Positions 3,973 through 54,203 of a DNA stretch of 64,000 nucleotides are shown here, in pieces (positions within the stretch are counted from its first letter, which is position 1; each line of letters opens with the position of its first letter). The position numbers and the translations under genes were made by a program. Source of the stretch: Bacillota bacterium (GTDB lineage Bacteria; Bacillota; Dethiobacteria; DTU022); NCBI GenBank assembly GCA_019428945.1, contig JAHYJM010000001.1:18267-82266 (forward strand), written 5' to 3'. The notes beneath the pieces were generated by a model. The model worked only from the letters and a program-made list of their open reading frames with translations, was not told the DNA's origin and did not search any database.

Positions 3973-4935
3973 ATGATCTACTTAAATGCCGATACTTTAC
4001 TGAATGCTGCCGCACTTGAAGAAATAATGGATGTGATTGAGCAGGCCTATGCGATTGAAACCGAGGGTTCTTTTGTGATGCCGCCCCGCATGCACATCGA
4101 CTATAACAATAATACCCTGCTTTATATGCCTTGTTTTCTCGAAACTATTTTTGGCACAAAAATCTTGTCCCTTTTTCCCGGAAACGCTGCAAAAGGGATT
4201 CCGGTTATAAGCGGACTTGTGCTTTTAAACGACAAAAACAGCGGTCATCCCCTGGCCATTCTCGACGGTGGCAGACTGACCGCGTTAAGAACCGGAGCAG
4301 TCGGTGGAGTCGCTGTCAGGCATACAGCACCACCTGCGGCAAAAAGTGCCGGCCTGGTTGGCTCAGGTGTCCAGGGTTACTATCAGCTTCTTTTTGCATC
4401 GAAGGCCCGCAACCTTGAAACTATATCTGTTTATGATCTTGATCAGGATAAAGTAAAAGGATTTTGCGACCGCTTGCAAAAAGATCTGCCTGAAATTGAA
4501 ATCAGGCCGGCTAAAAAGATTGAAGATTTACTTGATCATTCAGAAATAGTTATTACAGCAACACCTTCAGAAAAACCTGTCTTGCCTGATGATGAAAAAC
4601 TGCTGCAGAATAAGAGTTACATTGGTATCGGTTCTTATAAACCTGAAATGAGGGAGTTTCCGCGCTCCTTATATAAACTGGTAGACAGAGTATTGATCGA
4701 TACTGCCCATGGCCTGGAAGAATCGGGCGACTTGATTACACCCCTGCAGGAAAAGTGGATTGAGCCCGGCCAGATTTTAGAATTCGGTAAATATCTTTCC
4801 GAAGAGGCTAAAACGGAAATTCCCAACGCAACAACACTTTTCAAATCTGTTGGAATGGCTTTATTTGACATAGCAGTTGGTGAGCTGCTCTATTGTAAAG
4901 CGCTGGAGAAAGGTCTGGGGATAAATCTTGATTAA
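3973..4935 (+). CDS. Ornithine cyclodeaminase/mu-crystallin family protein (candidate pyrroline-2-carboxylate reductase)
   Basis: LTALRTGA, GSGVQG Rossmann motif, IGSYKP..RE, FKSVGMALFD. Confidence 0.88.
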   Translation: MIYLNADTLLNAAALEEIMDVIEQAYAIETEGSFVMPPRMHIDYNNNTLLYMPCFLETIFGTKILSLFPGNAAKGIPVISGLVLLNDKNSGHPLAILDGGRLTALRTGAVGGVAVRHTAPPAAKSAGLVGSGVQGYYQLLFASKARNLETISVYDLDQDKVKGFCDRLQKDLPEIEIRPAKKIEDLLDHSEIVITATPSEKPVLPDDEKLLQNKSYIGIGSYKPEMREFPRSLYKLVDRVLIDTAHGLEESGDLITPLQEKWIEPGQILEFGKYLSEEAKTEIPNATTLFKSVGMALFDIAVGELLYCKALEKGLGINLD

Positions 4936-20318: not shown

Positions 20319-21239
20319 ATGATGAACAAGGGAATAATTTTTAACATTCAAAGGTTTTCACTGCACGACGGCCCGGGGATTAGAACAACTATATTTTTTA
20401 AAGGCTGCCCATTAAGCTGCCCTTGGTGCCAGAACCCGGAGGGGATGAGGCCTGAAAAAGATCTTTTCAGACATTCAGCCCGCTGTATCGCATGCCGGTT
20501 TTGCGTAGAGCATTGTCCGGAAAAAGCCGTTGAACTTACTGAAAATGGTCCGGTAATTAATCGTGACTTATGTTCACTATGCCTGATCTGTGCAGAAAAT
20601 TGTCCTGTTGAAGCATTTGAAAAAGCGGGCAGGGAAATCACTGTAGGCGAGCTTGTAAATGAAATCATAAAAGATAGAATTATATTTGAAGAATCGGGAG
20701 GAGGAGCAACATTTTCCGGCGGTGAACCGCTTATGCAAAGTGGGTTTTTGATCAGTGTATTAAAAGCATTAAAAAACGAAGGGATCCACACAGCTATTGA
20801 AACATCCGGTTATGCTTCCTGGGAGAGCTTTAGGGATACGCTTCCATATACAGATCTATATTTATTTGATTTAAAAATTGTTGATCCGGGAAAGTGCAAA
20901 GAATTTCTGGGCGTAAATATAGAACCGATACTTGAGAATCTGAATAAACTAGCTAAAAATAATGCTGATATATTAGTGCGTATTCCAGTAATTCCCTCGG
21001 TAAATGATGATTTAAGAAATTTGAACCTGGTGGTGAAAACTTTGAACAGCGCCGGAATTGATTCTCTCGAGCTGATCCCATACCATAAACTCGGTTCGGC
21101 AAAATACTCAAACCTTGATCTTAATTACAGCATGCATAATATTGAACCGCCCGGCCCCGATCAATTGGATCGAATCACAAAACTGCTTGAAGCATCTGGT
21201 ATTATTATACATAGCGAGGTAGAACGCGAAAATGATTAA
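20319..21239 (+). CDS. Glycyl-radical enzyme activating enzyme (HypD activase)
   Basis: HDGPGIRTTIFFKGCPLSCPWC, ferredoxin insert, FSGGEP, ETSG; overlaps hypD. Confidence 0.93.
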   Translation: MMNKGIIFNIQRFSLHDGPGIRTTIFFKGCPLSCPWCQNPEGMRPEKDLFRHSARCIACRFCVEHCPEKAVELTENGPVINRDLCSLCLICAENCPVEAFEKAGREITVGELVNEIIKDRIIFEESGGGATFSGGEPLMQSGFLISVLKALKNEGIHTAIETSGYASWESFRDTLPYTDLYLFDLKIVDPGKCKEFLGVNIEPILENLNKLAKNNADILVRIPVIPSVNDDLRNLNLVVKTLNSAGIDSLELIPYHKLGSAKYSNLDLNYSMHNIEPPGPDQLDRITKLLEASGIIIHSEVEREND

Positions 21240-23613
21240 ACAAAACCGTGGTATGAACGACAGAGTACAAAAATTACGGGAAATAAGTGAGACAACAAGA
21301 CCGTCAATTTCAATCGAGCGAGCTTTACTGGTTACTGAGGCATATAAAAACCATGCCGGCAAGGTGAGTATCCCTGTGCTCAGAGCTCTTGTTTTTAAGC
21401 ATTTGATGGAGAATAAAACTATCCATATTGAGAATGGAGAACTGATCGTAGGCGAACGCGGAACGGGACCACAGGTCACACCGACCTATCCTGAGCTTTG
21501 CTGTCACACGCTTGATGATCTATCGGTTATTTCAGAAAGAGAAAAAATTTCATTTGAAGTTAACGAGCATGTCCGAAATACCCAGGAACATGAAATCATC
21601 CCTTACTGGCATGGTCGTTCCATGCGGGAAAATATATTTAAACAGATGAGCAAGGATTGGCACAACTGTTACGAAGCCGGTATTTTTACAGAGTTTATGG
21701 AGCAGCGTGCCCCTGGCCACACTGTGGCAGGAGATAAAATATACAACACAGGTATGCTTGATTTAAAAGCTCAGATTACCAGTAAACTTAATTCACCTGG
21801 TTTAAAAGATAATCCTGATCAAGAAGCTAAACGAGAACAGCTTAAAGCAATGGATATATGCGCCGACGCTTTAATCACCTTTGCAAAACGGCATGCTCAA
21901 AAAGCAAGGGAAATAGCCAAAACAGAAATTTTACCGGAAAGAAGAGCGGAGCTGCTAAAAGTCGCGTCTGTTTGTGAAAGAGTTCCGGCCAATGCTCCAT
22001 GCGATATGTGGGAAGCTCTTCAATATTACTGGTTCGTTCACCTCGGTGTTATAACCGAGCTCAATACCTGGGATGCTTTCTGTCCCGGCAGGCTTGATCA
22101 ACACCTCCGGCCATTTTACGAGAAAGATATTGAAAAGGGAAACCTCAACCGCGAGAAGGCAAAAGAACTTCTTGAATGTTTCTGGATTAAGTTCAATAAT
22201 CAACCAGCCCCGCCCAAAGTCGGAATAACCCTGAAAGAAAGTGGAACATACACCGATTTTTCGAACATCAACCTCGGTGGTGTAAAGCCTGACGGTAAAG
22301 ACGGTGTAAACGATATAACCTACCTGCTGCTTGAAGTAATTGATGAAATGCGCCTGCTTCAGCCAAGTACTAATATACAGCTCAGCAAGAAAAATCCTGA
22401 TCTCTTTATCAGGAAAGCCGGCGAAATTATCCGTAAAGGCTGGGGACAACCTTCAGTTTTTAATGTTGAAGCTGTAATCCAGGAGCTTCTGATCCAGGGT
22501 AAATCACTGGTTGATGCCAGGAATGGAGGAACAAGCGGGTGTGTTGAAACTGGTGCATTCGGAAAGGAAAGCTATATCCTGACTGGTTATTTCAACCTGA
22601 CTAAAGTATTGGAAATAACCCTGAATAATGGCTTCGATCCTTTAACGGGTAAACAGCTTGGACCGGATACCGGTAACCCACGTGACTTTAACAGCTTTGA
22701 AGAGTTGCTGAAAGCTTTTGAAACGCAGCTAAAACATTTTCTGGATATAAAAATAACAGGAAACCAGGTGATTGAAAAACTCTATGCTGATAACATGCCA
22801 GCGCCATTTCTTTCACTAATCATCGATGACTGTCTTGAGAATGCCAAAGATTACAATGCCGGTGGTTCGCGCTATAATACAAACTACATTCAGGGTGTAG
22901 GCATAGGCTCAATCACTGACAGTTTGGCATCGATCAAAAAACATATATACGACGATCAAAAATACAGCTGGGATCGGTTATTATCTGCCCTCAATACTAA
23001 TTTTTCAGGTCTTGAAGCAATGAGACAGTATATAATTCACAAAACACCGCACTACGGCAACGATGACGACTATCCCGATGATATTATGCAAAAAGTTTTC
23101 AGTATGTTTCACCATCTGGTTGACGGACGTAAAACTTTCCGCGGCGGCACGTACAGGATCAACATGCTGCCAACAACATGCCACGTTTATTTCGGATCAA
23201 TAATCGGCGCAACTCCCGATGGACGTTTAGCAGGGATACCATTATCGGAAGGTATATCACCCGTGCAGGGTACTGACATAAGCGGACCGACAGCGGTAAT
23301 TAAATCAGCTGCTAAGATGGACCACCTGCTGACAGGCGGAACTCTGCTAAACCTGAAATTTTCACCCATAGCGCTGGCAGGAGATAAAGGTCTTGATAAC
23401 CTGGTCCATCTTGTCAGGTCATATTTCAGGATGGACGGTCATCATATACAGTTTAATGTTGTTGACGCCGATACACTTAAAAAGGCCCAGGCCAACCCTG
23501 AGCTTCACCGTGGTTTGATCGTGAGGGTGGCCGGTTACAGCGACTATTTCAACAACCTCAGCGAACAGCTTCAAAACGAGATAATTACCCGCACTGCACA
23601 CGAAGCCCTTTGA
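21232..23613 (+). CDS. hypD: trans-4-hydroxy-L-proline dehydratase (glycyl radical enzyme)
   Basis: HypD-like segments as recalled from the C. difficile enzyme: TYPELCCH, FMEQRAPGHT, FNNQPAPPKVGITLKES.TYTDF, TSGCVETG; also MLPTTCH and RVAGYS. Confidence 0.9.
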   Translation: MIKQNRGMNDRVQKLREISETTRPSISIERALLVTEAYKNHAGKVSIPVLRALVFKHLMENKTIHIENGELIVGERGTGPQVTPTYPELCCHTLDDLSVISEREKISFEVNEHVRNTQEHEIIPYWHGRSMRENIFKQMSKDWHNCYEAGIFTEFMEQRAPGHTVAGDKIYNTGMLDLKAQITSKLNSPGLKDNPDQEAKREQLKAMDICADALITFAKRHAQKAREIAKTEILPERRAELLKVASVCERVPANAPCDMWEALQYYWFVHLGVITELNTWDAFCPGRLDQHLRPFYEKDIEKGNLNREKAKELLECFWIKFNNQPAPPKVGITLKESGTYTDFSNINLGGVKPDGKDGVNDITYLLLEVIDEMRLLQPSTNIQLSKKNPDLFIRKAGEIIRKGWGQPSVFNVEAVIQELLIQGKSLVDARNGGTSGCVETGAFGKESYILTGYFNLTKVLEITLNNGFDPLTGKQLGPDTGNPRDFNSFEELLKAFETQLKHFLDIKITGNQVIEKLYADNMPAPFLSLIIDDCLENAKDYNAGGSRYNTNYIQGVGIGSITDSLASIKKHIYDDQKYSWDRLLSALNTNFSGLEAMRQYIIHKTPHYGNDDDYPDDIMQKVFSMFHHLVDGRKTFRGGTYRINMLPTTCHVYFGSIIGATPDGRLAGIPLSEGISPVQGTDISGPTAVIKSAAKMDHLLTGGTLLNLKFSPIALAGDKGLDNLVHLVRSYFRMDGHHIQFNVVDADTLKKAQANPELHRGLIVRVAGYSDYFNNLSEQLQNEIITRTAHEAL

Positions 23614-23673: not shown

Positions 23674-23749
23674 AGGGGAGTAGCTCAACTGGCAGAGCAG
23701 CGGTCTCCAAAACCGCAGGCTGCGGGTTCAAGTCCTGTCTCCCCTGCCA
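23674..23749 (+). tRNA. tRNA-Trp (CCA)
   Basis: Acceptor AGGGGAG/CTCCCCT, anticodon arm GCGGT-CTCCAAA-ACCGC, GGTTCAAGTCC T-arm, encoded CCA. Confidence 0.96.
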
Positions 23750-23915: not shown

Positions 23916-23996
23916 TTAACTACGGGATATTTTTATGCCCCTGCCTGTAACGTTTTAAATTGAATAGGGTTAATCACTATGAAAGAGGTGTTATAT

Positions 23997-25187
23997 ATGC
24001 AGTCTACAAAAGAAGTGTTGCAGCTGAATGAAAAGTTCGGAGCAAGGAATTACCTTCCTCTGCCCGTTGTTCTTTCCAGTGGAGAAGGCGTTTGGGTTAC
24101 AGATCCGGAAGGGAATCGCTACATGGATATGCTCAGTGCATATTCGGCTATGAATTTTGGCCATTGCCATCCTAAAATTATAGATGCATTAAAAAAGCAG
24201 GCTGATAAAATAACCCTCACATCACGAGCTTTTCATAACGATCAGCTTGGTGAATTCTGCCGGAGGCTGGCCGAATTAACGGGCAAAGAGATGGTCCTGC
24301 CCATGAATACGGGAGCCGAAGCAGTTGAAACGGCTATTAAAGCAGTACGCCGCTGGGCATACAGAGTAAAAAATGTGCCCGAAGATAAAGCTGAAATAAT
24401 TGCGTGCAGCGGTAATTTTCATGGACGAACAGTAACAATTGTCTCATTCAGTTCTGACGAAGCTTATAAATCAGGGTTTGGCCCTTATACACCGGGGTTC
24501 AGAATTATTGAATACGGCAGCATTGACGCGCTTAAAGCAGCGATCAATAAGAATACAGCCGCTTTGCTAATCGAACCGATTCAGGGCGAAGGGGGAATAA
24601 TCATTCCCCCCGCAGGCTACTTAAATGAAGCCTATAAACTCTGTAAAGAAAATAATATTATTTTTATGGCTGATGAAATACAAACCGGTTTCGGCCGTAC
24701 CGGCACAATGTTTGCCTGTGACCGGGAAAATGTGGCTCCTGATCTTTACATCCTTGGCAAAGCGCTTGGTGGCGGAGTCCTGCCTATCTCTGCTGTTACA
24801 GCTTCAGAAGAGGTCCTGGGCGTTTTTGAACCGGGCTCACATGGCTCTACATTTGGCGGAAATCCCCTTGCCTGCGCTGTATCGCTTACCGCCCTGGATG
24901 TGCTTGAAGAGGAAAAACTTGTTGAAAATTCAGAGGGTCTGGGTATTTATTTCGTAAAAAGGCTCCGGGAAATTCAACATCCGGTTATTGCTGAAATCAG
25001 GGGCAGGGGGCTTATGGTTGGCGTTGAGTTAAAGGAAAAAGCCCGTCCGTATTGTGAAAAACTAATGAAAAAAGGCATATTGGCCAAAGAAACACACGAG
25101 AATGTTATAAGGTTTGCGCCACCGCTGGTTATAACAAAAAAAGAACTGGACTGGGCAATTGATATAGTAGACCAGGTTTTCAGTTAG
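23997..25187 (+). CDS. rocD: Ornithine--oxo-acid aminotransferase
   Basis: [67 protein letters not shown]; ATG after GAGGTG. Confidence 0.93.
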
Positions 25188-25214
25188 AAGAATAAAATAA
25201 AAATATAAAAAGTA

Positions 25215-25243
25215 TTGACAAATCAAATTACTTGATCAATAAT
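25215..25243 (+). promoter_or_regulatory. Sigma-A promoter of the intergenic RNA
   Basis: TTGACA-17 bp-AATAAT; predicted +1 about 25250. Confidence 0.65.
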
Positions 25244-25249
25244 ACCCTT

Positions 25250-25540
25250 ACCAGGTTCCGAGAGACTGGATAGCAAACTGGATCTGGTTTGCAGGGAAAA
25301 GCCGGAATGGAAAAAGGGTTAACCGGATTCCAAAGAAGGGTCCCTAAAATAACCAGATCGCTGAAAGAGCCGGATAATGAAAGGTCGCCAGGCCGGGAAT
25401 TACCGGAAATCGCAGCACGGATAATAGTAACTTCCTGGAGGTTGAGTGAATGCCATCCAAAGGTGGTGGTGGAAGCTCAGCTGTAGATGGGCAAGCGAAG
25501 AAGATCCGACAGTGAGTTAAAAGGCCTGTTGGGACCTGGT
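25250..25540 (+). ncRNA. Unidentified ~290-nt structured RNA
   Basis: 12-bp terminal helix ACCAGGTTCCGA/TTGGGACCTGGT starting at the predicted +1 and followed by Ts; several internal helices; GC-richer than its AT-rich flanks. Confidence 0.65.
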
Positions 25541-25644
25541 TTTAATTTGTACAATGTTTGCTTATGAGATTCTAACCGCTTGTATTTCTTTTACACAAAT
25601 AATAACATCTACATAAATAACTAACATTACTATTCTTCGTTTCG

Positions 25645-25674
25645 TTGACACTTCTGAATAAACTCTGGTATAAT
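25645..25674 (+). promoter_or_regulatory. Sigma-A promoter of the NuoEF-like operon
   Basis: TTGACA-18 bp-TATAAT with extended -10 TG. Confidence 0.75.
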
Positions 25675-25771
25675 TTTTATTGTGATAAATGTTCTTAGTT
25701 AACCTATAACTTAAGATTTAATAAAATATGTCTAGCTTTAATACAAAACTAAATAAACCAAAGGACGGGTA

Positions 25772-28144
25772 ATGAGCAACCAATTAAATCTATTCGACAC
25801 CATCATTGAACGTCACAATAGCAAAGCCTCCGGATTAATTATGATTCTGCAGGATATCCAGACTGAATTTGGTTACCTTCCGCCGGAGGCTGTATCAAGA
25901 ATATCCGAAACACTTCATATTCCGCAGTCACAGGTTTATTCAGTAGCAACATTTTATAAATCCTTTTCTTTAAAACCGCAGGGTAAGCATAAAATAGATA
26001 TTTGCGAAGGCACCGCCTGCCATATCAGGGGTGCTTCTGTTTTAATGAGCCAGGTATCTGAAGAATTAAGTATAAAGCCCGGTGAAACCACCGCAGATGG
26101 TGAATTAACATTAAACTCTGTTCACTGTGTGGGAGCCTGCGCAATGGCCCCTGTAGTTGTAATTGACGGTGCCTACCATGGCAGCGTTACCTCTTCGCAG
26201 TTGTCAAAAGAGCTTAAGAGTTGCTGTTCTTCAGAAATTAAAAAGAAAGATGCTAAACCACCGGCAGAAACAATAGTTGGGCTGGGTGAAAAAATAGCAT
26301 CTCCTGAACAACTCGATAGAATAAGAAACCGGATCGCCAGTGAAAAACCGCTAAACGAAGCAAAGATTCTGGTTTGCGCCGGAACCGGCTGCCTGGCCAA
26401 AGGTAGTCTTGCAGTTGCTGAAGCGATCAGCCGGGAATTAAGATCTTCAGCCCTCGACCTACCGGTTAATCTTGGCTTAAAAAGAGTAGGCTGCCAGGGC
26501 TTTTGTGAAAAGGGACCCCTTGTAATTATTTCACCACAGAAAATTTTCTATAACAATGTCCGTCCGGAAGATGCCGAAGTAATAATCAGGGAAACAATAA
26601 TCGGTAAAAAGGCAGTGGAGAGACTGCTTTATCATGATCCTGAGACTGAAAAGAGCATGGAGGTTTATGAAGAGATACCGTTTTTCGCCGGACAGGAGCG
26701 AATAGCCCTTAGAAATGTTGGTACTATCGATCCGCTCGACATTAAAGATTATATCGCACAGGGCGGTTTCAGTGCTCTAATAAAAGCACTTTATAAAATG
26801 AATCCCGGGCAGGTTATCAGCGAAATTGAAAGTTCCGGTTTGCGTGGAAGAGGAGGAGGAGGCTTTCCCACCGGAAGAAAATGGCGCACAAGCGCTTCTG
26901 TTCCGTCTGATATCCGTTATGTAATCTGTAATGGTGACGAGGGAGACCCCGGCGCTTTTATGGATCGCAGTATCATGGAAGGCGATCCATACTCAGTTCT
27001 TGAAGGCATCATAATCTGTGCATATGCGATAGGCGCTTCTGAAGGTTTTATCTATGTCAGGGAAGAATATCCGCGCGCTTTAAAACACCTCCAGGCTGCA
27101 ATCGACCAGAGCAGGAAAGCCGGGATCCTCGGCAGTGATATTTGTGGCACCGGTTTTTCATTTGATATCACTATTAACCGGGGTACGGGCGCTTTTATCT
27201 GCGGCGAGTCAACAGCGCTAATGCAATCAATTGAAGGTAAGGTCGGAGAGCCACGGGCAAAATATATCAGATCCGCCGAACGGGGTCTTTATGATAAACC
27301 TACTGTTTTAAACAACGTTGAAACTTTTACTAATATACCTGAAATTATTCGCAAAGGTGCCAAATGGTACTCCTCGACCGGAACAAGCACCAGTCCCGGC
27401 ACCAAAGTCTTTTCAGTCGTGGGCAAAGTGAAGAACACAGGACTGGTAGAGGTTCCAATGGGAATAACTATGCGTAAAATCATCTATGATATATGTGGTG
27501 GGATCCTTGACAACAAATCATTTAAAGCTGTCCAAACCGGCGGCCCTTCAGGTGGCTGTCTGCCGGCAAGCAAGCTTGACATACCGGTAGATTTTGACAC
27601 ACTTACACTTGAAGGATCGATGATGGGTTCCGGCGGCATGATAGTAATGGACGAAGAAACCTGTATGGTTGATGTTGCCCGCTACTTTACAGATTTTCTT
27701 TCCCAGGAATCATGTGGGAAATGTGCTGCCTGCAGGCTCGGCCTGGCCAACCTTCACGACATTCTGGACAATATTTGCCGCGGTAAAGGTAGAGCAGGGG
27801 ATATAGAAAGAATAGAAAAGCTGCTTGAACTGCTTGAACAGGGCTCTTTGTGCGGTCTTGGCAAATCTGCGCCCAACCCTGTTCGCAGTACACTTAAACA
27901 CTTTAAAGAAGAGTACCTGGCTCACATTAATGAAAAGAGATGCCCTGCCGGAGTCTGCCGGGATTTAATCAGTTTTCATATAACCGACGACTGTACCGGA
28001 TGCCGGCGATGTGCCAGGGTTTGTCCGCAAAAAGCGATAAGCGGCAATAAAAAGGAGCTTCATATTATTGATCAGGATCTCTGCAACCGCTGCGGCCTAT
28101 GCCGTGTTACCTGCAACTTTGATGCCGTTATTGTTGAAAGTTGA
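25772..28144 (+). CDS. Fused NuoE/HydC - NuoF/HydB (BfuC-BfuB-like) FMN/Fe-S NAD(P)H-binding subunit
   Basis: ATFY..F, CEGTAC...CVGAC (2Fe-2S); CAGTGC...CQGFC; GLRGRGGGGFPTG; NGDEGDPGAFMDR; GGPSGGC; ESCGKCAACR; HINEKRCPAGVC; two C-terminal 4Fe-4S motifs. Confidence 0.92.
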   Translation: MSNQLNLFDTIIERHNSKASGLIMILQDIQTEFGYLPPEAVSRISETLHIPQSQVYSVATFYKSFSLKPQGKHKIDICEGTACHIRGASVLMSQVSEELSIKPGETTADGELTLNSVHCVGACAMAPVVVIDGAYHGSVTSSQLSKELKSCCSSEIKKKDAKPPAETIVGLGEKIASPEQLDRIRNRIASEKPLNEAKILVCAGTGCLAKGSLAVAEAISRELRSSALDLPVNLGLKRVGCQGFCEKGPLVIISPQKIFYNNVRPEDAEVIIRETIIGKKAVERLLYHDPETEKSMEVYEEIPFFAGQERIALRNVGTIDPLDIKDYIAQGGFSALIKALYKMNPGQVISEIESSGLRGRGGGGFPTGRKWRTSASVPSDIRYVICNGDEGDPGAFMDRSIMEGDPYSVLEGIIICAYAIGASEGFIYVREEYPRALKHLQAAIDQSRKAGILGSDICGTGFSFDITINRGTGAFICGESTALMQSIEGKVGEPRAKYIRSAERGLYDKPTVLNNVETFTNIPEIIRKGAKWYSSTGTSTSPGTKVFSVVGKVKNTGLVEVPMGITMRKIIYDICGGILDNKSFKAVQTGGPSGGCLPASKLDIPVDFDTLTLEGSMMGSGGMIVMDEETCMVDVARYFTDFLSQESCGKCAACRLGLANLHDILDNICRGKGRAGDIERIEKLLELLEQGSLCGLGKSAPNPVRSTLKHFKEEYLAHINEKRCPAGVCRDLISFHITDDCTGCRRCARVCPQKAISGNKKELHIIDQDLCNRCGLCRVTCNFDAVIVES

Positions 28145-31100
28145 AAGAAACAGGTGAAAATATATCTATGTCAAACAAAGTATTAATTACAATCGATGGC
28201 CGTAAAGTAGAAACAGAAAACAGAACCATGCTCCTGAGTATTTTACGGGACATGGGTTTTAACCTACCAACCTTGTGCCATCATCCTTCACTCACTCCAT
28301 CCGGGGCTTGCCGACTCTGTGTTGTAGAGGTAACCAAAGATAGTTGGAAAGGCGCTTCAAAGATTGTAACTTCATGTCTCTATCCGGCGGAAGAAGGTTT
28401 AATCGTAAAAACGAGATCTGAGGAAGTTCTGAAAACCCGCCGTACTCTGCTGGAGCTATATATGGCCCAGTGCCCCGGTTCAGAAGAGATCAGGGCTATG
28501 GCCCGCCTTGAAGGTATAGATACAACCTCTTTTACAGTTGGTGAAGCTGATAACAAGTGTGTGTTGTGCGGTCTTTGCACCAGGGTTTGTCAGGATTGTG
28601 GTCCGGGAGCAATTTCAACCCTTTTTCGCGGAAATGACAAATTGGTCGCACCTAACCCTGAGGGAGTTGGCGATGACTGTACCGGCTGCCGCGCTTGTGC
28701 TTATATCTGCCCGACCGGAGCGATACCGATTGAACAGTCTAATCAGACTATGAAAATCTGGAACCGCGAATTTGAAGTGCCGATTTGCGAGGTTAAAAGC
28801 GACCTGTGCCGCGGCTGTGGGATATGCGAAGAAGTATGCCCATTCTCGGTACCAAGAGCTTCTATACAGATTGGGTCTGAAACTGTTTCGTTTATATCCC
28901 CTACAGCCTGCCTGGGATGCGGTATCTGTGCCGGGGCCTGTCCCACCGGTGCAATAAGTCAGAAAAAAACAGAAGAACTTACAGATCTTGAAAATAATTT
29001 GTTTAATAGAAACCTGCAGGGTAAAAATATTGTTTTTGCCTGCTCCCGCTCACCCTTCCCGGCTGACAACAGCGAATTAATCAGGGTCAGTTGCATTGGA
29101 AGTGTTGATATCACAACTATTTTATCCTGCCTCGCCCGGGGCGCTGACAAAGTGGCCCTGATGTGCAGGGACAGACTGACATGTCCCTATAAAGATGGCG
29201 GAGATCTTGGTGAAAACCGGGTTAAAACAATTCAGGATATCCTAGGCTACTTAGATTTAGATCCTAATATTACATCCTTATTGACCCCTGAACCAGGTCC
29301 GGACGGCCCTCAAAATACCTGGGGCGAATATAAACTTTATAAGGGTTTAAAACCGCAAACAGCAATTTATACCACTGATACCATTGAAAAAACCGGGTTG
29401 GATCAAGCTCTTGCATTAATTGACTGGTTCAAACTGCAGCCTGAAATTAAAACGGTTCTGCCACCTGAGCTGGCCTCTCTTTTCGAACCTGAAACTGCAG
29501 AAAATTATGATCTTTTATATCTCGGAAATCTTTCCGAGCTTCATCTGTTATTTAAAGATCTTACAGATGAATCGCCTGTAATTCCTATTATAGAATCGGC
29601 TCTCAGCTTTCTTAAAGAGAAAAATATACCAGTAAAACCGGTATGCAGTATAAAAGAAATTGAAGAATCCGGTTCCGGCAGAGTGATAACTTTTTCAACT
29701 CCACCTAAAGCGCTCCTTGATTCAAAATATGAAATAGTCACTCTGAATCAACTTGCCGGCGGTAATGCTTTAAATCAGCCCGGATTTACTTTTGCCTTAA
29801 ATGATACTGAGCGTAAAGAGCTGATTGGTGCCTTATCACAGGAAAACAGGGCTAAATCATGTTCATCGGCAGATGAGTACCTTCAGTACGCCCTTTTGAT
29901 GCGAAGCGGCGCCTGGCTGAAAACGCTTTCTCCAAAACCGGTTTTTTTTAAACCCGAATATACAATTTCTAAAGGACCTGAGATAAAGAAATTACCAGAT
30001 CTATACCGGATAAAAGATCACCCCATCTTACCACCTCTTAGCAAAGCTGACATATCTTTTACTTTTAATGAACAGCAAGTTATGGCCCGTAAAAATGAAG
30101 TCATCACCTCTGCTTTGTATGCTTCCGGAATTCACGTTTTCGGACATCACCAAAGTGATGGAGGCGCTCAGGGCATCTATTGCGTAAATGGTCAGTGTTC
30201 CCAATGTATGGTCATTGCCGACGGCAAACCGGTCAAGGGCTGCATGACTCCGGTCAGGGAAGGTATGGTCGTAAAGAGTGTAGATGGACTGCCTGTTTTA
30301 TCAGATTTACCCCCATCTGAAATCGTGATACCGGACACAGCAGAAATCGACACAGATGTGCTGATTATTGGTGGTGGTCCTGCCGGAATAAGCGCAGCGA
30401 TTGAACTTGGCACAGTTGGGATAGATACATTAATTATAGATGACAAGCAGGAACTGGGAGGAAAACTGAGCCTTCAGACCCATAATTTTTTCGGATCTGT
30501 GGCTGACTGTTATGCCGGTTCAAGAGGTATGCACATCGGTAAAATTCTAGTTGGTAATCTGAATAAACTGCCTACGGTCAAAATCTGGCTGAACTCGACG
30601 GTAATTGGAGTATTCAGTGACGGCAAGTTTGGGGTATCATGCAATGGGGTTTATCGCCTGGTTAGTGCGAAAAATGCTCTCTTTTCAACCGGGGCAAGAG
30701 AAAAAAGCCTGGCTTTCCCCGGGGCTGACTTACCTGGAGTTTATGGAGCCGGAGCATTTCAGACACTTGTAAATCGCGATCTAATCCGCTGCGCTGAAAG
30801 ACTGTTTATTATTGGCGGCGGGAATGTGGGCTTAATTGGCGCCTATCATGCCCTGCAGGCAGGAATTGATGTTGTAGGCCTTGTTGAAGCGTTGCCGCAC
30901 TGCGGCGGTTACAAGGTTCATGAAGATAAAATCAGGCGCTTTGGAGTGCCGGTATGGACCTCGCATACTGTTCTGCGCATTGAGGGAGAAGAGAAGGTCG
31001 AAAGAGTGATCACCGCTGCCCTGGATGATAATTTCAAACCAGTCCCCGGTACCGAAAGGTCTTTTGAAGTCGACACTGTCTTGATTGCAGTAGGCTTAAG

Positions 31101-32073
31101 CCCGGTTAACGAACTTCTTGAAAAAGCTAAGGAATACGGAATCGAAGCTTACGCAGCCGGTGATGCCAATGAAATTGCTGAAGCCTCTGCCGCAATCTTT
31201 TCAGGTAAAATCATCGGGCGCAGGATTGCGCAGGCTATGGGCGTAGACCTGCCGGTTCCGAGCGACTGGGAAGCATTCGGCGAAACCTTAAAACACCATG
31301 CCGGCGACAGCGACCCATTTATTCCAGAGGAAAGAAAAGATACCGTTTATCCTTTGATCCGCTGCATGCAGGAAATTCCCTGCAATCCATGCACCGAGGC
31401 CTGCCCGAAAAACTGCATCACCATGAATGATTCAATCCTCTCACTGCCGGAATTTGGCGGGGAGTGTATCGGCTGCGGCCGCTGTGTCCTTGCCTGCCCC
31501 GGTTTGGCTATAAATCTTGTCATTGACGATTATGATCCTGAAATGAAAAAAGCGCTTCTGATTATGCCCTTTGAATTTGTCAATGATCTGATCCCTATCG
31601 GGCAGGAGGTTACCACCACCGATATGGAAGGGAATATTGTCGGCAGGGGCAGGGTGATAGCTTATAAAGATCGTAAGGCTCAGAACAGCAGGCGTCTGCT
31701 TATGCTTGAGGTACCTTACGAAGAGAGACTAGAGGTAGCCGGGTTCCGGGTAAGGGAAATTGATCCGGGACAACCGCTTGAAGCGCCTCTTACTGATGCG
31801 GAGGATCCGATTGTGTGCCGCTGTGAAAGAGTCAGGAAGAGTGAAATTGTCAGGGCGATAAAAGATGGAGTGCGTGATTTGAACCAGTTAAAAGCACTCT
31901 TACGAACCGGGTTGGGTGGCTGTAACGGAAAAACCTGCACCGATTTGATTCTGCGCATTTACAGGGAAGAAGGCATCCCTTTAACTGAGCTGACCATGCC
32001 TACTCACAGGCCGCTTGTCGCTGAGGTTCACCTGGGTGATTTTATTGCCAAAGATAGAGGAGGAATGAAATAA
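28141..32073 (+). CDS. Multidomain fusion: NuoG/HydA-type Fe-S N-terminus, ferredoxin, MvhD-like, then sarcosine-oxidase/proline-dehydrogenase alpha-like (2Fe-2S, FAD/NAD oxidoreductase, 4Fe-4S, BFD 2Fe-2S)
   Basis: PTLCHH..GACRLC..TSC; CVLCGLC..VC; CTGCRAC..CP; two more CxxCxxCxxxCP; IRVSCIG..GADKV; YCVNGQCSQC..GC; IIGGGPAG; TGARE; IIGGGNVG; CRCERV..GCNGKTC; alternative ATG at 28168. Confidence 0.88.
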   Translation: MKETGENISMSNKVLITIDGRKVETENRTMLLSILRDMGFNLPTLCHHPSLTPSGACRLCVVEVTKDSWKGASKIVTSCLYPAEEGLIVKTRSEEVLKTRRTLLELYMAQCPGSEEIRAMARLEGIDTTSFTVGEADNKCVLCGLCTRVCQDCGPGAISTLFRGNDKLVAPNPEGVGDDCTGCRACAYICPTGAIPIEQSNQTMKIWNREFEVPICEVKSDLCRGCGICEEVCPFSVPRASIQIGSETVSFISPTACLGCGICAGACPTGAISQKKTEELTDLENNLFNRNLQGKNIVFACSRSPFPADNSELIRVSCIGSVDITTILSCLARGADKVALMCRDRLTCPYKDGGDLGENRVKTIQDILGYLDLDPNITSLLTPEPGPDGPQNTWGEYKLYKGLKPQTAIYTTDTIEKTGLDQALALIDWFKLQPEIKTVLPPELASLFEPETAENYDLLYLGNLSELHLLFKDLTDESPVIPIIESALSFLKEKNIPVKPVCSIKEIEESGSGRVITFSTPPKALLDSKYEIVTLNQLAGGNALNQPGFTFALNDTERKELIGALSQENRAKSCSSADEYLQYALLMRSGAWLKTLSPKPVFFKPEYTISKGPEIKKLPDLYRIKDHPILPPLSKADISFTFNEQQVMARKNEVITSALYASGIHVFGHHQSDGGAQGIYCVNGQCSQCMVIADGKPVKGCMTPVREGMVVKSVDGLPVLSDLPPSEIVIPDTAEIDTDVLIIGGGPAGISAAIELGTVGIDTLIIDDKQELGGKLSLQTHNFFGSVADCYAGSRGMHIGKILVGNLNKLPTVKIWLNSTVIGVFSDGKFGVSCNGVYRLVSAKNALFSTGAREKSLAFPGADLPGVYGAGAFQTLVNRDLIRCAERLFIIGGGNVGLIGAYHALQAGIDVVGLVEALPHCGGYKVHEDKIRRFGVPVWTSHTVLRIEGEEKVERVITAALDDNFKPVPGTERSFEVDTVLIAVGLSPVNELLEKAKEYGIEAYAAGDANEIAEASAAIFSGKIIGRRIAQAMGVDLPVPSDWEAFGETLKHHAGDSDPFIPEERKDTVYPLIRCMQEIPCNPCTEACPKNCITMNDSILSLPEFGGECIGCGRCVLACPGLAINLVIDDYDPEMKKALLIMPFEFVNDLIPIGQEVTTTDMEGNIVGRGRVIAYKDRKAQNSRRLLMLEVPYEERLEVAGFRVREIDPGQPLEAPLTDAEDPIVCRCERVRKSEIVRAIKDGVRDLNQLKALLRTGLGGCNGKTCTDLILRIYREEGIPLTELTMPTHRPLVAEVHLGDFIAKDRGGMK

Positions 32074-33245
32074 TGCCGACGGACAATATTTACGATGTTA
32101 TAGTTATCGGCTGCGGCAGTGTTGGCAATCCGACCGCCTATCATCTGGCAAAAGCAGGTTTAAAAGTACTTGTTATAGACAGGCGATCAGCAGCAGGACA
32201 GGGTGAAAATAAAACTGCAATCGGCGGAGTAAGAGCGACTCACTCAGATCCAGGCAAGATCAGTATTGGTCTTGAAAGCATCAGGATCTTTTCGACCTGG
32301 AAAGATATTTACGGTTTTGATATTGAATGGAAACCGGGTGGTTACTGTTTTCCTGTCTACGATGATATTGTCGAAGCCACACTAAAAAGCCTTCTACCAG
32401 CCCAGAAAGGATACGGTCTAAATATTAACTGGGTCGGTCCCGATGAAATTAAAGAAATTATCCCCGGCATTAACCCCGATGGCTTGCGGGGTGGGACCTA
32501 CTCACCCGATGATGGCCAGGTATCATCTATTCTGGCTCCGATTGCCTTTCAGCGTGAAGCTGAAAAATGCGGCGCCGTTTACCACTTTAACGAAAGAGTT
32601 ACCGGTTATTTACTTGATCGTGACAGGGTAACAGGAGTTAAAACTGATAGGGACACGTACTCATCATGCTGGGTGGTAATTGCTGCCGGTTCTGACGCGG
32701 CTGAGCATGGACCGATGCTCGGTATAGATATACCGGTCACACCAGATTCACATGAGGCAGGTATCTCCGCACCGATAGAGCATTTCCTTGCCCCACTCAT
32801 TGTTGATCTGCGCCCCGGACCAGAAGGGAAAACGACAAACTTTTATTTCGGCCAGAATAAAGAAGGACAGATTATCTTTTGCTACACGCCAAAAGATCTC
32901 TTTATCGGAACAAACCGTGAATCACGATCTGAATTTTTACCCGTTCTGGCCAGCAGGATGGTTGCTCTGATTCCCAAGTTTAAAAATCTTTTAATCCGCC
33001 GGATCTGGAGAGGCTGTTACCCCATGACGCCAGACGGCGTCCCAATCATCGATTATGCCCGGGAGCTGGAAGGCCTTATCCTTGCGGTCGGCATGTGCGG
33101 CCAGGGTCTGATGCTCGGCCCTGGAGTCGGCAGAAATATTGCATCCATGATCACCAGCAGCAGCCCCTGCATTTCTGATCAAGCACAGGCCTGTTTCCGC
33201 TGCGATCGTGATATCTATAAATCGGACACAGAAGCCCTCAAGTGA
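32073..33245 (+). CDS. DAO-family FAD oxidoreductase (sarcosine oxidase beta / L-proline dehydrogenase beta-like)
   Basis: VIVIGCGSVG, YPMTPDGVPII, GMCGQGLMLGPGVG; start overlaps the preceding stop. Confidence 0.85.
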   Translation: MPTDNIYDVIVIGCGSVGNPTAYHLAKAGLKVLVIDRRSAAGQGENKTAIGGVRATHSDPGKISIGLESIRIFSTWKDIYGFDIEWKPGGYCFPVYDDIVEATLKSLLPAQKGYGLNINWVGPDEIKEIIPGINPDGLRGGTYSPDDGQVSSILAPIAFQREAEKCGAVYHFNERVTGYLLDRDRVTGVKTDRDTYSSCWVVIAAGSDAAEHGPMLGIDIPVTPDSHEAGISAPIEHFLAPLIVDLRPGPEGKTTNFYFGQNKEGQIIFCYTPKDLFIGTNRESRSEFLPVLASRMVALIPKFKNLLIRRIWRGCYPMTPDGVPIIDYARELEGLILAVGMCGQGLMLGPGVGRNIASMITSSSPCISDQAQACFRCDRDIYKSDTEALK

Positions 33246-33390
33246 AAACAGTCTATTGCCCACAAGAAATACTTTCCATATCATTTTCAGTTTTTAAATA
33301 TTAATAGGCTGACTATCTTTTTTTGTCATGCATTGACCCTGTATGTAGATCACTTCAGAGCAATTTCTCTGCATTTATATATTCCCTGTA

Positions 33391-33419
33391 TTGCACAAAG
33401 CCCTCAATTTCGGTAGAAT
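33391..33419 (+). promoter_or_regulatory. Sigma-A promoter of proC
   Basis: TTGCAC-17 bp-TAGAAT. Confidence 0.6.
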
Positions 33420-33454
33420 ACATGCTAAGACTTTAATTCAGGGGAGTATGAGCG

Positions 33455-34267
33455 ATGAAAAATGATAACATTGGTATTATCGGCTGCGGCGCAATGGGTT
33501 CAGCGCTGGCAAAAGGTATGGTAAAAGCAGGTGGCATTAAACCGGCTTCTATTTTCCTTTATGATCTGGACAAAGGAAGAATGACAGAACTCGCAAATGA
33601 ATTGAAAGCGACACCGGCTGAAAAACCGGCAGATTTTATTCCTTTCTGCCGTCACATTTTTATCGCTGTTAAGCCTCAGGATACGGAAGGATTATTGTAC
33701 GCTATAAAACCTTACGTCCAGTCTGATCAAATTTATGTATCGATAGCAGCAGGAATTACAATTAGTTTTATCGAAAGTTGTCTTTCATCCGGTACTAAGG
33801 TCATTCGATTAATGCCGAACACTCCCTGCCTGATCGGTGAAGGCACAATAGCGCTGAGCACCGGTGACGCTGTTACGGATGATGAAAGGCGAGAAGTTGA
33901 ATGCCTGCTTAAATCACTTGGCCTGACGATGAGGCTTCCTGAAAAGCTAATGGATGCTGCAACAGGCCTCAGTGGTACAGGACCTGCCTATGTCTATCTC
34001 TTTATAGAAACTATGATTGATGCCGGTGTTTCTGTTGGTATAAGACGTGATGTCGCTACAAAAATGGTAGTACAGAATGTGATCGGCGCCGCAAAAATGC
34101 TGGAGACAAATGCGCAGCATCCTGCGGAACTTCGTAATATAGTCACATCTCCGGCAGGAACTACAAGTTCAGCTCTGCTTGTTCTTGAAGAATCTGGTTT
34201 CCGCAGCTGTCTGATTAAAGCAGTGAGGGAAGCAACCAGGCGTTCAGAAGAACTACGGCTGGGTTAA
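33455..34267 (+). CDS. proC: Pyrroline-5-carboxylate reductase
   Basis: IGCGAMG, AVKPQ, SIAAG, RLMPNTP, GLSGTGPAY, VTSPAGTT. Confidence 0.95.
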   Translation: MKNDNIGIIGCGAMGSALAKGMVKAGGIKPASIFLYDLDKGRMTELANELKATPAEKPADFIPFCRHIFIAVKPQDTEGLLYAIKPYVQSDQIYVSIAAGITISFIESCLSSGTKVIRLMPNTPCLIGEGTIALSTGDAVTDDERREVECLLKSLGLTMRLPEKLMDAATGLSGTGPAYVYLFIETMIDAGVSVGIRRDVATKMVVQNVIGAAKMLETNAQHPAELRNIVTSPAGTTSSALLVLEESGFRSCLIKAVREATRRSEELRLG

Positions 34268-48527: not shown

Positions 48528-48790
48528 AATAAAAAAACTTTCGTACAAGAGACGAAAGTTAATTTCCGTGGTACCACTCTTCTTGGCGGCATAACTTCTA
48601 CCACCCACTCTTTAAGATAACGGAAGTCTCCGGCCAGGCCTAATTTCGCTCATTGAGAACTGATTTCGGTTGGCGGCTTACGGAGGAGTTCATTGACATC
48701 TTAATTACCGCTTTTCACTCTGCAGCGGCTCTCTGCTAATTAACCTGTCGATTACTGGTTCCGATCATTGCCTTTATTTTATTGACTTGA
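48528..48790 (-). promoter_or_regulatory. Leu T-box riboswitch controlling leuA
   Basis: Minus strand: promoter TTGACA-17-TAATCT (48824-48796); stem I with AGAGA; specifier GAA-CTC (Leu, 48688-48686); T-box GAGTGGTACCACGG; terminator AACTTTCGT/ACGAAAGTT plus T-tract. Confidence 0.92.
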
Positions 48791-54129: not shown

Positions 54130-54203
54130 TGGCTGCGGGACTAGGGATCGAACCTAGGCTTGATGATCCAGAGTCATCCGTGCTACCGCTACACCATCCC
54201 GCA
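54130..54203 (-). tRNA. tRNA-Gln (CTG)
   Basis: Minus strand TGCGGGA...TCCCGCAGCCA, anticodon arm GATGA-CTCTGGA-TCATC, GGTTCGATCCC; promoter TTGCTT-17-TATAAT. Confidence 0.96.

Follow-up and report, generated by a model that had tools for sequence, protein, structure and literature searches.

The DNA analysed here, a window of 64,000 nt to which all positions without a contig label refer, is part of contig JAHYJM010000001.1 of a Bacillota bacterium (GCA_019428945.1). Its genome, labelled G000 in this work, comprises 2.36 Mb in 170 contigs and is 98% complete; the contig carrying the RNA copy studied is C18. Between a class-III aminotransferase gene (rocD-like, 23979-25187, Pfam PF00202) and a gene for a NuoE/NuoF fusion (25772-28144) lies a gap that holds the RNA and its promoter (Table 1). 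The downstream operon (25772-34267) encodes the NuoE/NuoF fusion (790 aa), a 1310-aa multi-cluster Fe-S/flavin fusion, a DAO flavoenzyme (390 aa) and proC. Further upstream, at 20319-23613, genes for a radical-SAM activase (306 aa) and, after it, a glycyl-radical enzyme of 793 aa (PFL-like plus Gly_radical) directly precede a tRNA, rocD and the RNA. Given the proline genes nearby, we presume that this glycyl-radical enzyme could be of the hydroxyproline-dehydratase type.

Table 1. Mapped features of the window; helix numbers follow the consensus model of 33 orthologues.
Feature	Position	Strand	Remarks
tRNA gene	23674-23746	+	Rfam 15
A/T-rich tract, UP-element-like, 5′ of the -35 box	25190..25214	+	read from the sequence; equivalent tract in 61 family members
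Sigma-A-type promoter: -35 TTGACA 25215-25220, 17-nt spacer, -10 AATAAT 25238-25243	25215..25243	+	11/12 consensus positions
RNA, rocD-locus paralogue (C18)	25250..25540	+	291 nt; fold, orthologues, covariation, strand-fixing G-U pairs
P1 5′ strand, near-invariant ACCAGGTTCCGAGAGACT	25250..25267	+	helix 1: 16 pairs, 98.3% paired
P2 and P2b 5′ strands, pairing with 25510-25519 and closing the three-arm junction	25271..25280	+	helices 2 and 3; 6/7 pairs changed on both sides
Arm A, long interrupted hairpin: GATCTGGTT/AACCAGATC, AGGGA/TCCCT, TGGAA/TTCCA, GG/CC	25281..25359	+	helices 4-8
Arm B: GCTG/CAGC, CCGG../..CCGG, GGTC/GGCC; conserved junction strands GAAAG, GGGAA	25360..25416	+	helices 9-11
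Arm C: CGGA/TCCG, ACTT/AAGC, CTG/TGG, then hairpin 25440-25482	25418..25508	+	helices 12-16
P1 3′ strand GGCCTGTTGGGACCTGGT	25523..25540	+	consensus model, 33 orthologues
U-rich tail TTTAATTT, then GTAC	25541..25552	+	likely termination tract
Promoter of the downstream operon, separate from the RNA (boundary marker)	25645..25674	+	12/12 consensus, with TG extension
T-box leader	48545-48777	-	Rfam 15, 124.5 bits
tRNA gene	54133-54203	-	Rfam 15

A first-pass annotation, made from the letters alone, had proposed a promoter whose +1 falls on a helix pairing both ends of the RNA, and this arrangement is borne out. A25250 lies 6 nt beyond the end of the -10 box and opens a terminal helix whose bases end at T25540; 25250-25261 pairs with 25529-25540 over 12 bp, and the helix (P1) reaches 16 pairs, 25250-25267 with 25523-25540, given two one-base bulges. 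The layout is shared by the family: among 61 distinct full-length members gathered from all loci (one partial hit was dropped), a TTGACA-like -35 box begins 34-36 nt ahead of the first P1 base in every case, and the A/T-rich tract that precedes it may act as an UP element. On the 3′ side, at least five T are found among the 8 nt directly after P1 in 58/61 members, and GTAC occurs no more than 14 nt beyond P1 in 34/61, mostly at offset 8 (28/61; 25549-25552 in the window). The pattern around GTAC, a G, 8 nt and then a U-G step, resembles what we take to be the consensus pause signal. At some of the hpt loci described below, bases of the GTAC region overlap the hpt stop codon on the opposite strand. 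We infer that the U-rich tract 3′ of P1 is a terminator. A simple terminator scan detected no terminator at the 3′ end of the RNA, a blank that arises because the P1 stem is long-range; the sequence suggests an intrinsic terminator with P1 itself as its stem. From these signals, the predicted transcription unit comprises the promoter, the RNA closed by P1, and the U-tract.

The promoter spacer of the rocD copy (25220-25243) is conserved across genera in 30-odd orthologous loci; it is of the AAATCAAATTACTTGATCAATAAT type, with a partly palindromic TTGA..TCAA, and the spacers of other paralogues do not show this conservation. Such a spacer may be an operator for a copy-specific regulator. A search for a second site within the window found none, and no link to a regulon emerged.

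The next operon is separately promoted, as the first-pass annotation had also claimed: its consensus promoter starts 105 nt past the end of the RNA, which is therefore not that operon's leader. A small protein gene was considered and rejected. There is no conserved reading frame in the RNA family, where the longest ORFs measure 18-80 aa and their starts are scattered, and a 65-aa ORF opened by TTG in the window copy (25289-25486) is not kept in relatives.

Folding energy singles out one strand. The plus strand of 25245-25545 has a minimum free energy of -111.4 kcal/mol, compared with -85.5 ± 5.4 in 100 dinucleotide shuffles (z = -4.84, 0/100 as good), whereas the reverse complement reaches only z = -1.44, with 7/100 shuffles as good. 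Together with its own promoter, this upholds the earlier view of a stand-alone structured gene. We aligned 33 sequences of the rocD type, four outliers having been moved to a second alignment, and derived with RNAalifold a consensus structure of 85 pairs in 16 helices, in which standard pairs make up 90.3% of cells and double-sided changes affect 54 pairs (210 cells). On each of five measures, 0/500 shuffles of this alignment came up to this structure. When the 3′ partners were shifted by 1-3 columns, 25-49% of cells remained paired and 22-32 pairs were changed on both sides, a comparison in which the structure is favoured, having been derived from the same alignment. Double changes are numerous within single helices, e.g., 8/9 pairs at the base of arm A. 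Other pairs never vary: G-U pairs such as those at columns 11/294 and 18/287 are present in 33/33 sequences, and since these fit the plus strand only, they fix the strand.

In the consensus model, the RNA is composed of three covarying arms that radiate from a junction within the 16-pair terminal helix. Several of the helices first proposed from the window sequence are part of it, namely, the base of arm A and AGGGA/TCCCT, which had been offered as an alternative pairing, and GGTTGAG/CTCAGCT enclosing GCCATCC/GGTGGTG, all of which covary in the 33 orthologues. Three others, GGATCT/AGATCC, GTTTGC/GCAAGC and CCGGGAATTAC/GTAACTTCCTGG, had to be given up: they are complementary in the window sequence, yet they are only 56-69% paired across orthologues, with 11 double-changed pairs versus 11.7 in shuffles. 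The arms differ in detail. For helix 5 of arm A, the consensus alignment is one step off register in the window row, and the register was taken from the single-sequence fold. Arm B carries an additional hairpin in other paralogues. The hairpin of arm C (25440-25482) is highly conserved, its helices 15 and 16 being 97-99% paired; the GA-rich internal loop between them, of the type GGAAG opposite CGGAA, is present and conserved and may be the kink-turn-like loop proposed there. The RNA is rich in purines (62-67%), with conserved unpaired GAAAG, GGGAA and GGAAG strands. A scan beyond the nested model found no pseudoknot and no further covarying stacks.

P1 behaves differently from the arms. Nine of its 16 pairs are invariant across the 33 orthologues, whereas most arm pairs vary. 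Compensatory changes do occur in it: double-sided changes are found at columns 1/304, 6/299 and 8/297 among rocD-type copies, C-G is replaced by U-A at 3/346 and G-C by A-U at 15/334 in other paralogues, and position 6 changes from G-C to A-U in more distant families. Considering the promoter, the ends and the fold, we are highly confident that 25250-25540 (+) is, as its sequence indicates, an independently promoted gene for a complex-folded non-coding RNA of an undescribed family.

This family is represented more than once in the genome. An nhmmer profile of rocD-type copies, searched against G000, recovered the window copy (262 bits) along with two further members, namely C36:16158-16471 (-), which scores 91 bits, and C124:467-781 (-), with 31 bits; the fourth match (E 1.5) is at noise level. 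Identity among the three copies is 58-66%, and each has a TTGACA/-10 promoter ahead of it and a U-rich tail after it. By single DNA queries, the C36 copy was found in 19/41 genomes and the C124 copy in 15/41, and one relative (G006) holds four copies on four contigs. The second alignment, made of 28 sequences of other paralogue types including the four outliers, gave the same three-arm design, with 89 pairs, 88.8% paired, 50 pairs changed on both sides and 0/500 shuffles as good. Members range from 280 to 410 nt. In the closed 3.6-Mb genome of one relative (G143), the intact member, located on the reverse strand (L145, 2946-3355), measures 410 nt and has a duplicated arm C; two 5′-truncated copies (L144:3230-3401 and 4735-4917), which lack the 5′ strand of P1 and arm A, are located inside a 1.5-kb direct repeat. 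Because of this duplicated arm and these truncated copies, the family arms can be said to tolerate modular insertion. Apparent tandem copies in another relative (G083:C139) were rejected, as the two ends are parted by a run of N.

Inverted termini of 12 bp, one to four copies per genome and the truncated pair within a direct repeat would also be features of a MITE-like mobile element, whose terminal inverted repeats would be P1 and whose copies would have spread by transposition. We regard this as extremely improbable. Copies in one genome are too unlike one another (58-66%) and each type keeps its locus from genus to genus; compensatory changes and G-U pairs are specific to one strand; the conserved promoter lies outside the repeat; and no flanking duplication is visible in the flanks of the 61 family members.

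The family extends through a class of bacteria. With BLAST against 40 relatives, 15 genomes yielded full-length homologues (70-86% identity) and others gave partial matches, amounting to 20/41 genomes with G000 included. An exact two-motif pattern scan over 185,579 species, with one genome per species, returned 36 loci, 35 of which were confirmed by profile; the remaining one, in Porticoccus, was not confirmed and is a chance match. All 35 confirmed loci are in metagenome-assembled genomes labelled Syntrophomonadaceae or Bacillota, apart from one Desulfovibrio and one Limnocylindrales label. Within the class (149 species genomes), BLAST located the RNA in 50/149. A partial covariance model of 124 positions of the 3′ part, built on 59 sequences after two of the 61, outliers that aligned poorly, had been set aside, raised this to 67/149; its RNAalifold structure is poor, with 15 pairs, so that it acts mostly as a sequence profile. 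By family (f1 to f8 in our numbering), its matches are distributed as follows: f1 46/72, f7 5/5, f8 4/6, f3 7/33, f6 2/23, f5 2/7, f2 0/1 and f4 0/1. There are 27 genomes with one match, 16 with two, 19 with three and 5 with four, figures that are not strict copy numbers, as a few matches are weak or partial. Some well-assembled f1 genera have no match (e.g., 0/3, 0/5), and in the remaining genomes of the class the family is either dispensable or too diverged for detection. The carriers are a group of uncultured alkaline-lake bacteria, from a class of haloalkaliphilic anaerobes.

Genomic context, counted from our own ORF calls and BLAST clusters, differs among copies. The rocD-type copy is located 3′ of rocD in 24/33 loci and, in 28/33, upstream of a same-strand gene, which is of the NuoEF type in 17 loci and proC in 11. 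Copies of the second type are flanked by a divergent F-type ATPase beta/epsilon operon (11 loci) and by a convergent cytidylate-kinase-like gene with hpt (10 loci). Convergence with the hpt pair is also seen for the four outliers, which come from other families, and for three f7 and f8 members. Altogether, 13 loci of families f1, f5, f7 and f8 show the hpt-locus copy and hpt in convergent orientation, with gaps of 2 to 65 nt to the hpt 3′ end in the loci read. Since the hpt locus is common to these four families and the rocD copy is found in f1 only, the former is probably the ancestral site of the family and the latter probably a later duplicate. The operon divergent from the hpt-locus paralogue (L080, which is the C36 locus of G000, as well as L070-L077 and L091) encodes, in this order, F-type ATPase beta, epsilon and a small membrane protein, a gene order that we take to be typical of Na+-translocating N-ATPases. 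Third and fourth copies occupy varied sites; that of G000 (C124) sits between an aldo-keto reductase gene and a MazF-like gene. The latter, a PemK/MazF-like toxin ORF (L081:2-301), is convergent to the RNA, and a PIN-like ORF is found near the hpt locus; we suggest no functional link for either.

The position of the window copy invites a cis-acting interpretation, i.e., a giant riboswitch-like domain in which P1 is a conditional terminator and, when unformed, allows read-through into the proline/ornithine operon or, at the other locus, antisense transcription into hpt. The U-tract directly after the 3′ strand of P1 would suit such a sensor, as would the 28/33 rocD-type loci with Bfu-type dehydrogenase genes or proC downstream on the same strand and the short distance between the hpt-locus copy and the hpt 3′ end. 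We consider it quite improbable, however. The downstream operon has a consensus promoter of its own, and several other genomes likewise have TTGACA boxes 3′ of the RNA. No neighbouring gene is shared by all copies, and those on C36 and C124 are followed by convergent genes and have no downstream gene on their own strand, which speaks against the family acting as a leader or riboswitch; three paralogues with one common core and no common gene context are unlike a ligand-specific leader. A length of 290 nt also far exceeds that of typical riboswitch aptamers. For the family as a whole, a cis-acting 5′ leader was therefore rejected: the 12/12 promoter stands between the RNA and the next gene, and the C36, C124 and 13 hpt-locus copies face convergent genes. 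Some read-through effect of the window copy on the proline/ornithine operon is possible. The link to proline/ornithine genes that position suggests holds for one late duplicate and not for the whole family, and we infer, in line with the first-pass annotation, that the RNA acts in trans.

The sequence matches no known RNA. Rfam 15 (4227 models, gathering thresholds), run over the whole window, reported only a T-box and two tRNAs and nothing on the RNA. A permissive scan of 25150-25800 (E up to 10) gave four chance-level matches, with E 1.4 to 8.3 and all far under gathering scores, and the same kind of scan over ten loci with other paralogues gave no match on the RNAs. Bacterial SRP RNA (RF01854, RF00169), RNase P RNA (RF00010, RF00011), 6S RNA (RF00013) and tmRNA (RF00023) were each rejected for want of a model match in 25150-25800 at E up to 10. 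The canonical genes are located elsewhere in G000: a large SRP RNA at C105:14949-15213 (214 bits; the small-SRP model matches the same place), a type A RNase P RNA at C128:1172-1546 (311 bits; the type B model gives 75 bits there, under its cut-off), a 6S RNA on C166 (97 bits) and a tmRNA at C123:4168-4522 (186 bits). The earlier suggestions of echoes of SRP helix 8 and RNase P, and of a divergent 6S- or SRP-like housekeeping RNA, thus find no support. A divergent form of any of the four would share size and closed ends with the RNA, and these two features are the whole of the likeness; we give this explanation practically no credence. The alternative put forward at the same time, a new class, is the one that agrees with the Rfam results.

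Other candidates were rejected as well. OLE RNA (RF01071) has no model match on the RNA and is a separate gene at C154:21787-22363 (-), with 468.8 bits, so two large orphan RNAs co-exist in G000. The strings GGUUCCG and CCGAGAG of the RNA resemble, we presume, conserved strings of the guanidine-I (ykkC) riboswitch; RF00442 is absent from the matches at E up to 10, and this candidate was discarded. The raiA motif RNA (RF03072) gave no match at E up to 10, either to the RNA or to the ten loci with other paralogues; a genome-wide raiA search of G000 and 40 relatives gave no match, and control genomes gave none either. Our literature search found no paper on the RNA, and the main text of PMC11109978, supplements apart, holds no relevant mention.

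Among known systems, the raiA motif RNA comes near in kind: it, too, is a stand-alone orphan ncRNA with a complex fold, found in Bacillota and a few hundred nt long, with its own promoter and terminator, and its biochemical role is not known. It is single-copy and about 210 nt, whereas the new family has 1-4 paralogues of 280-410 nt. OLE is likewise a large structured ncRNA of anaerobic extremophilic Bacillota and co-occurs with the new RNA in G000, but it is about 600 nt and single-copy, and there is no similarity in sequence or model. With 6S RNA, the new RNA shares the character of a stable RNA with a strong promoter and paired ends, and with possible paralogues (two in Bacillus); it differs in being a three-arm junction and not a rod with a central bubble. 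The smtA motif, also named "Soda Lake RNA", a large orphan with strong covariation from soda-lake bacteria, is a high-ranking candidate in the main text of PMC11109978 (Narunsky et al. 2024), where it is described as longer than 350 nt, exclusive to Thioalkalivibrio (Gammaproteobacteria) and located upstream of smtA. Its consensus is published only as a figure there, and published host lineage (another phylum) and size are what set it apart from the new RNA. No Thioalkalivibrio record came up in our exact-pattern scan over 185,579 species genomes.

Y RNAs with their partner Ro60/Rsr provide another likeness, as the new RNA also ends in a conserved stem followed by a U tail, has a variable interior and occurs as several paralogues per genome; the terminal stem GGUUCCGA/UUGGGACC presumably bears a loose resemblance to the Ro-binding stem. 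Such an RNA could serve as a protein sponge, either as a bacterial Y RNA bound by Ro (Rsr) or as a CsrB/Rsm-like decoy for CsrA, the latter in view of 13 GGA triplets in the window copy. Yet neither partner turned up in G000 at 98% completeness: searches for the TROVE domain (PF05731) and the CsrA domain (PF02599) found none, with Deinococcus and Bacteroides controls positive for the former and control genomes positive for the latter. The GGA count is barely higher than the ~9 expected from composition, and the triplets are largely inside covarying helices. The RNA is also three times longer than bacterial Y RNAs, and Rfam gave no tRNA-like or Y-type match. A sponge of this kind is very improbable and, for G000, largely refuted.

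The lack of a protein candidate in those same searches would be expected if the RNA worked on its own, either as a large ribozyme or as an assembly of RNA alone, of the "ornate RNA" type, in which the purine-rich junction strands and P1 would form a protein-free catalytic or self-assembling core. The complex multi-armed fold and the many conserved unpaired purines fit this idea, and large bacterial orphan RNAs (OLE, ROOL, GOLLD) reportedly assemble into homo-oligomers (PMC12286853). At ~290 nt, however, the new RNA is far smaller than these three. The nested model accounts for all covarying stacks found, with no pseudoknot or long-range stack outside it, and having several diverged paralogues in one genome is commoner for regulatory or particle RNAs than for ribozymes. 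We therefore hold a ribozyme or RNA-only assembly to be unlikely.

We favour instead a stable, abundant, trans-acting RNA in which P1 would serve both recognition and termination and the arms would confer specificity, a statement to which, taken as a whole and from the sequence evidence at hand, we assign a probability of roughly 45%. Transcription would start at A25250 and end in the U-rich tract just past P1. P1 would be the stem of the intrinsic terminator and, at the same time, a seal guarding both ends, leaving a stable and abundant product; we consider this reasonable because the family resembles stable RNAs in its closed ends and in strong promoters that are preceded by A/T-rich tracts. 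The RNA would then act in trans and not on the adjoining gene, with the near-invariant P1 as the platform that a partner, most probably a protein, recognises, and with variable arms giving each paralogue its own specificity. Its mode would be like that of Y, 6S or other particle RNAs, without membership in those families. The argument for recognition comes from the fact that P1 is kept nearly letter for letter across paralogues that are 58-66% alike, even where pairing would permit change, which points to sequence-specific recognition, most simply by a protein. The invariance of P1 could instead come from tertiary contacts, a processing site or a constraint at the DNA level.

A more specific proposal is that the RNA is the subunit of a new RNP, or a catalytic or assembling RNA, specific to the class, with P1 as docking site and the arms of each paralogue selecting targets. 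We find this possible, although doubtful. If true, this would give bacteria an equivalent of particle RNAs with multiple paralogues, such as Y or 7SK-like regulators. To our knowledge, every solved bacterial RNA whose complex fold combines numerous covarying helices with invariant nucleotides has turned out to be a ribozyme, a riboswitch or an RNP core, and we know of few orphan RNAs of such size.

The family lends itself to further study. Up to four diverged paralogues per genome amount to built-in comparative data, the predicted transcript ends are sharply defined, and the invariant P1 points to a specific interaction. One member is present in a closed, single-contig genome of the class, whose organism may be culturable. 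Newly described here are the paralogues, the probably ancestral hpt locus and the class-wide distribution, which together weaken the link of this RNA to proline genes.
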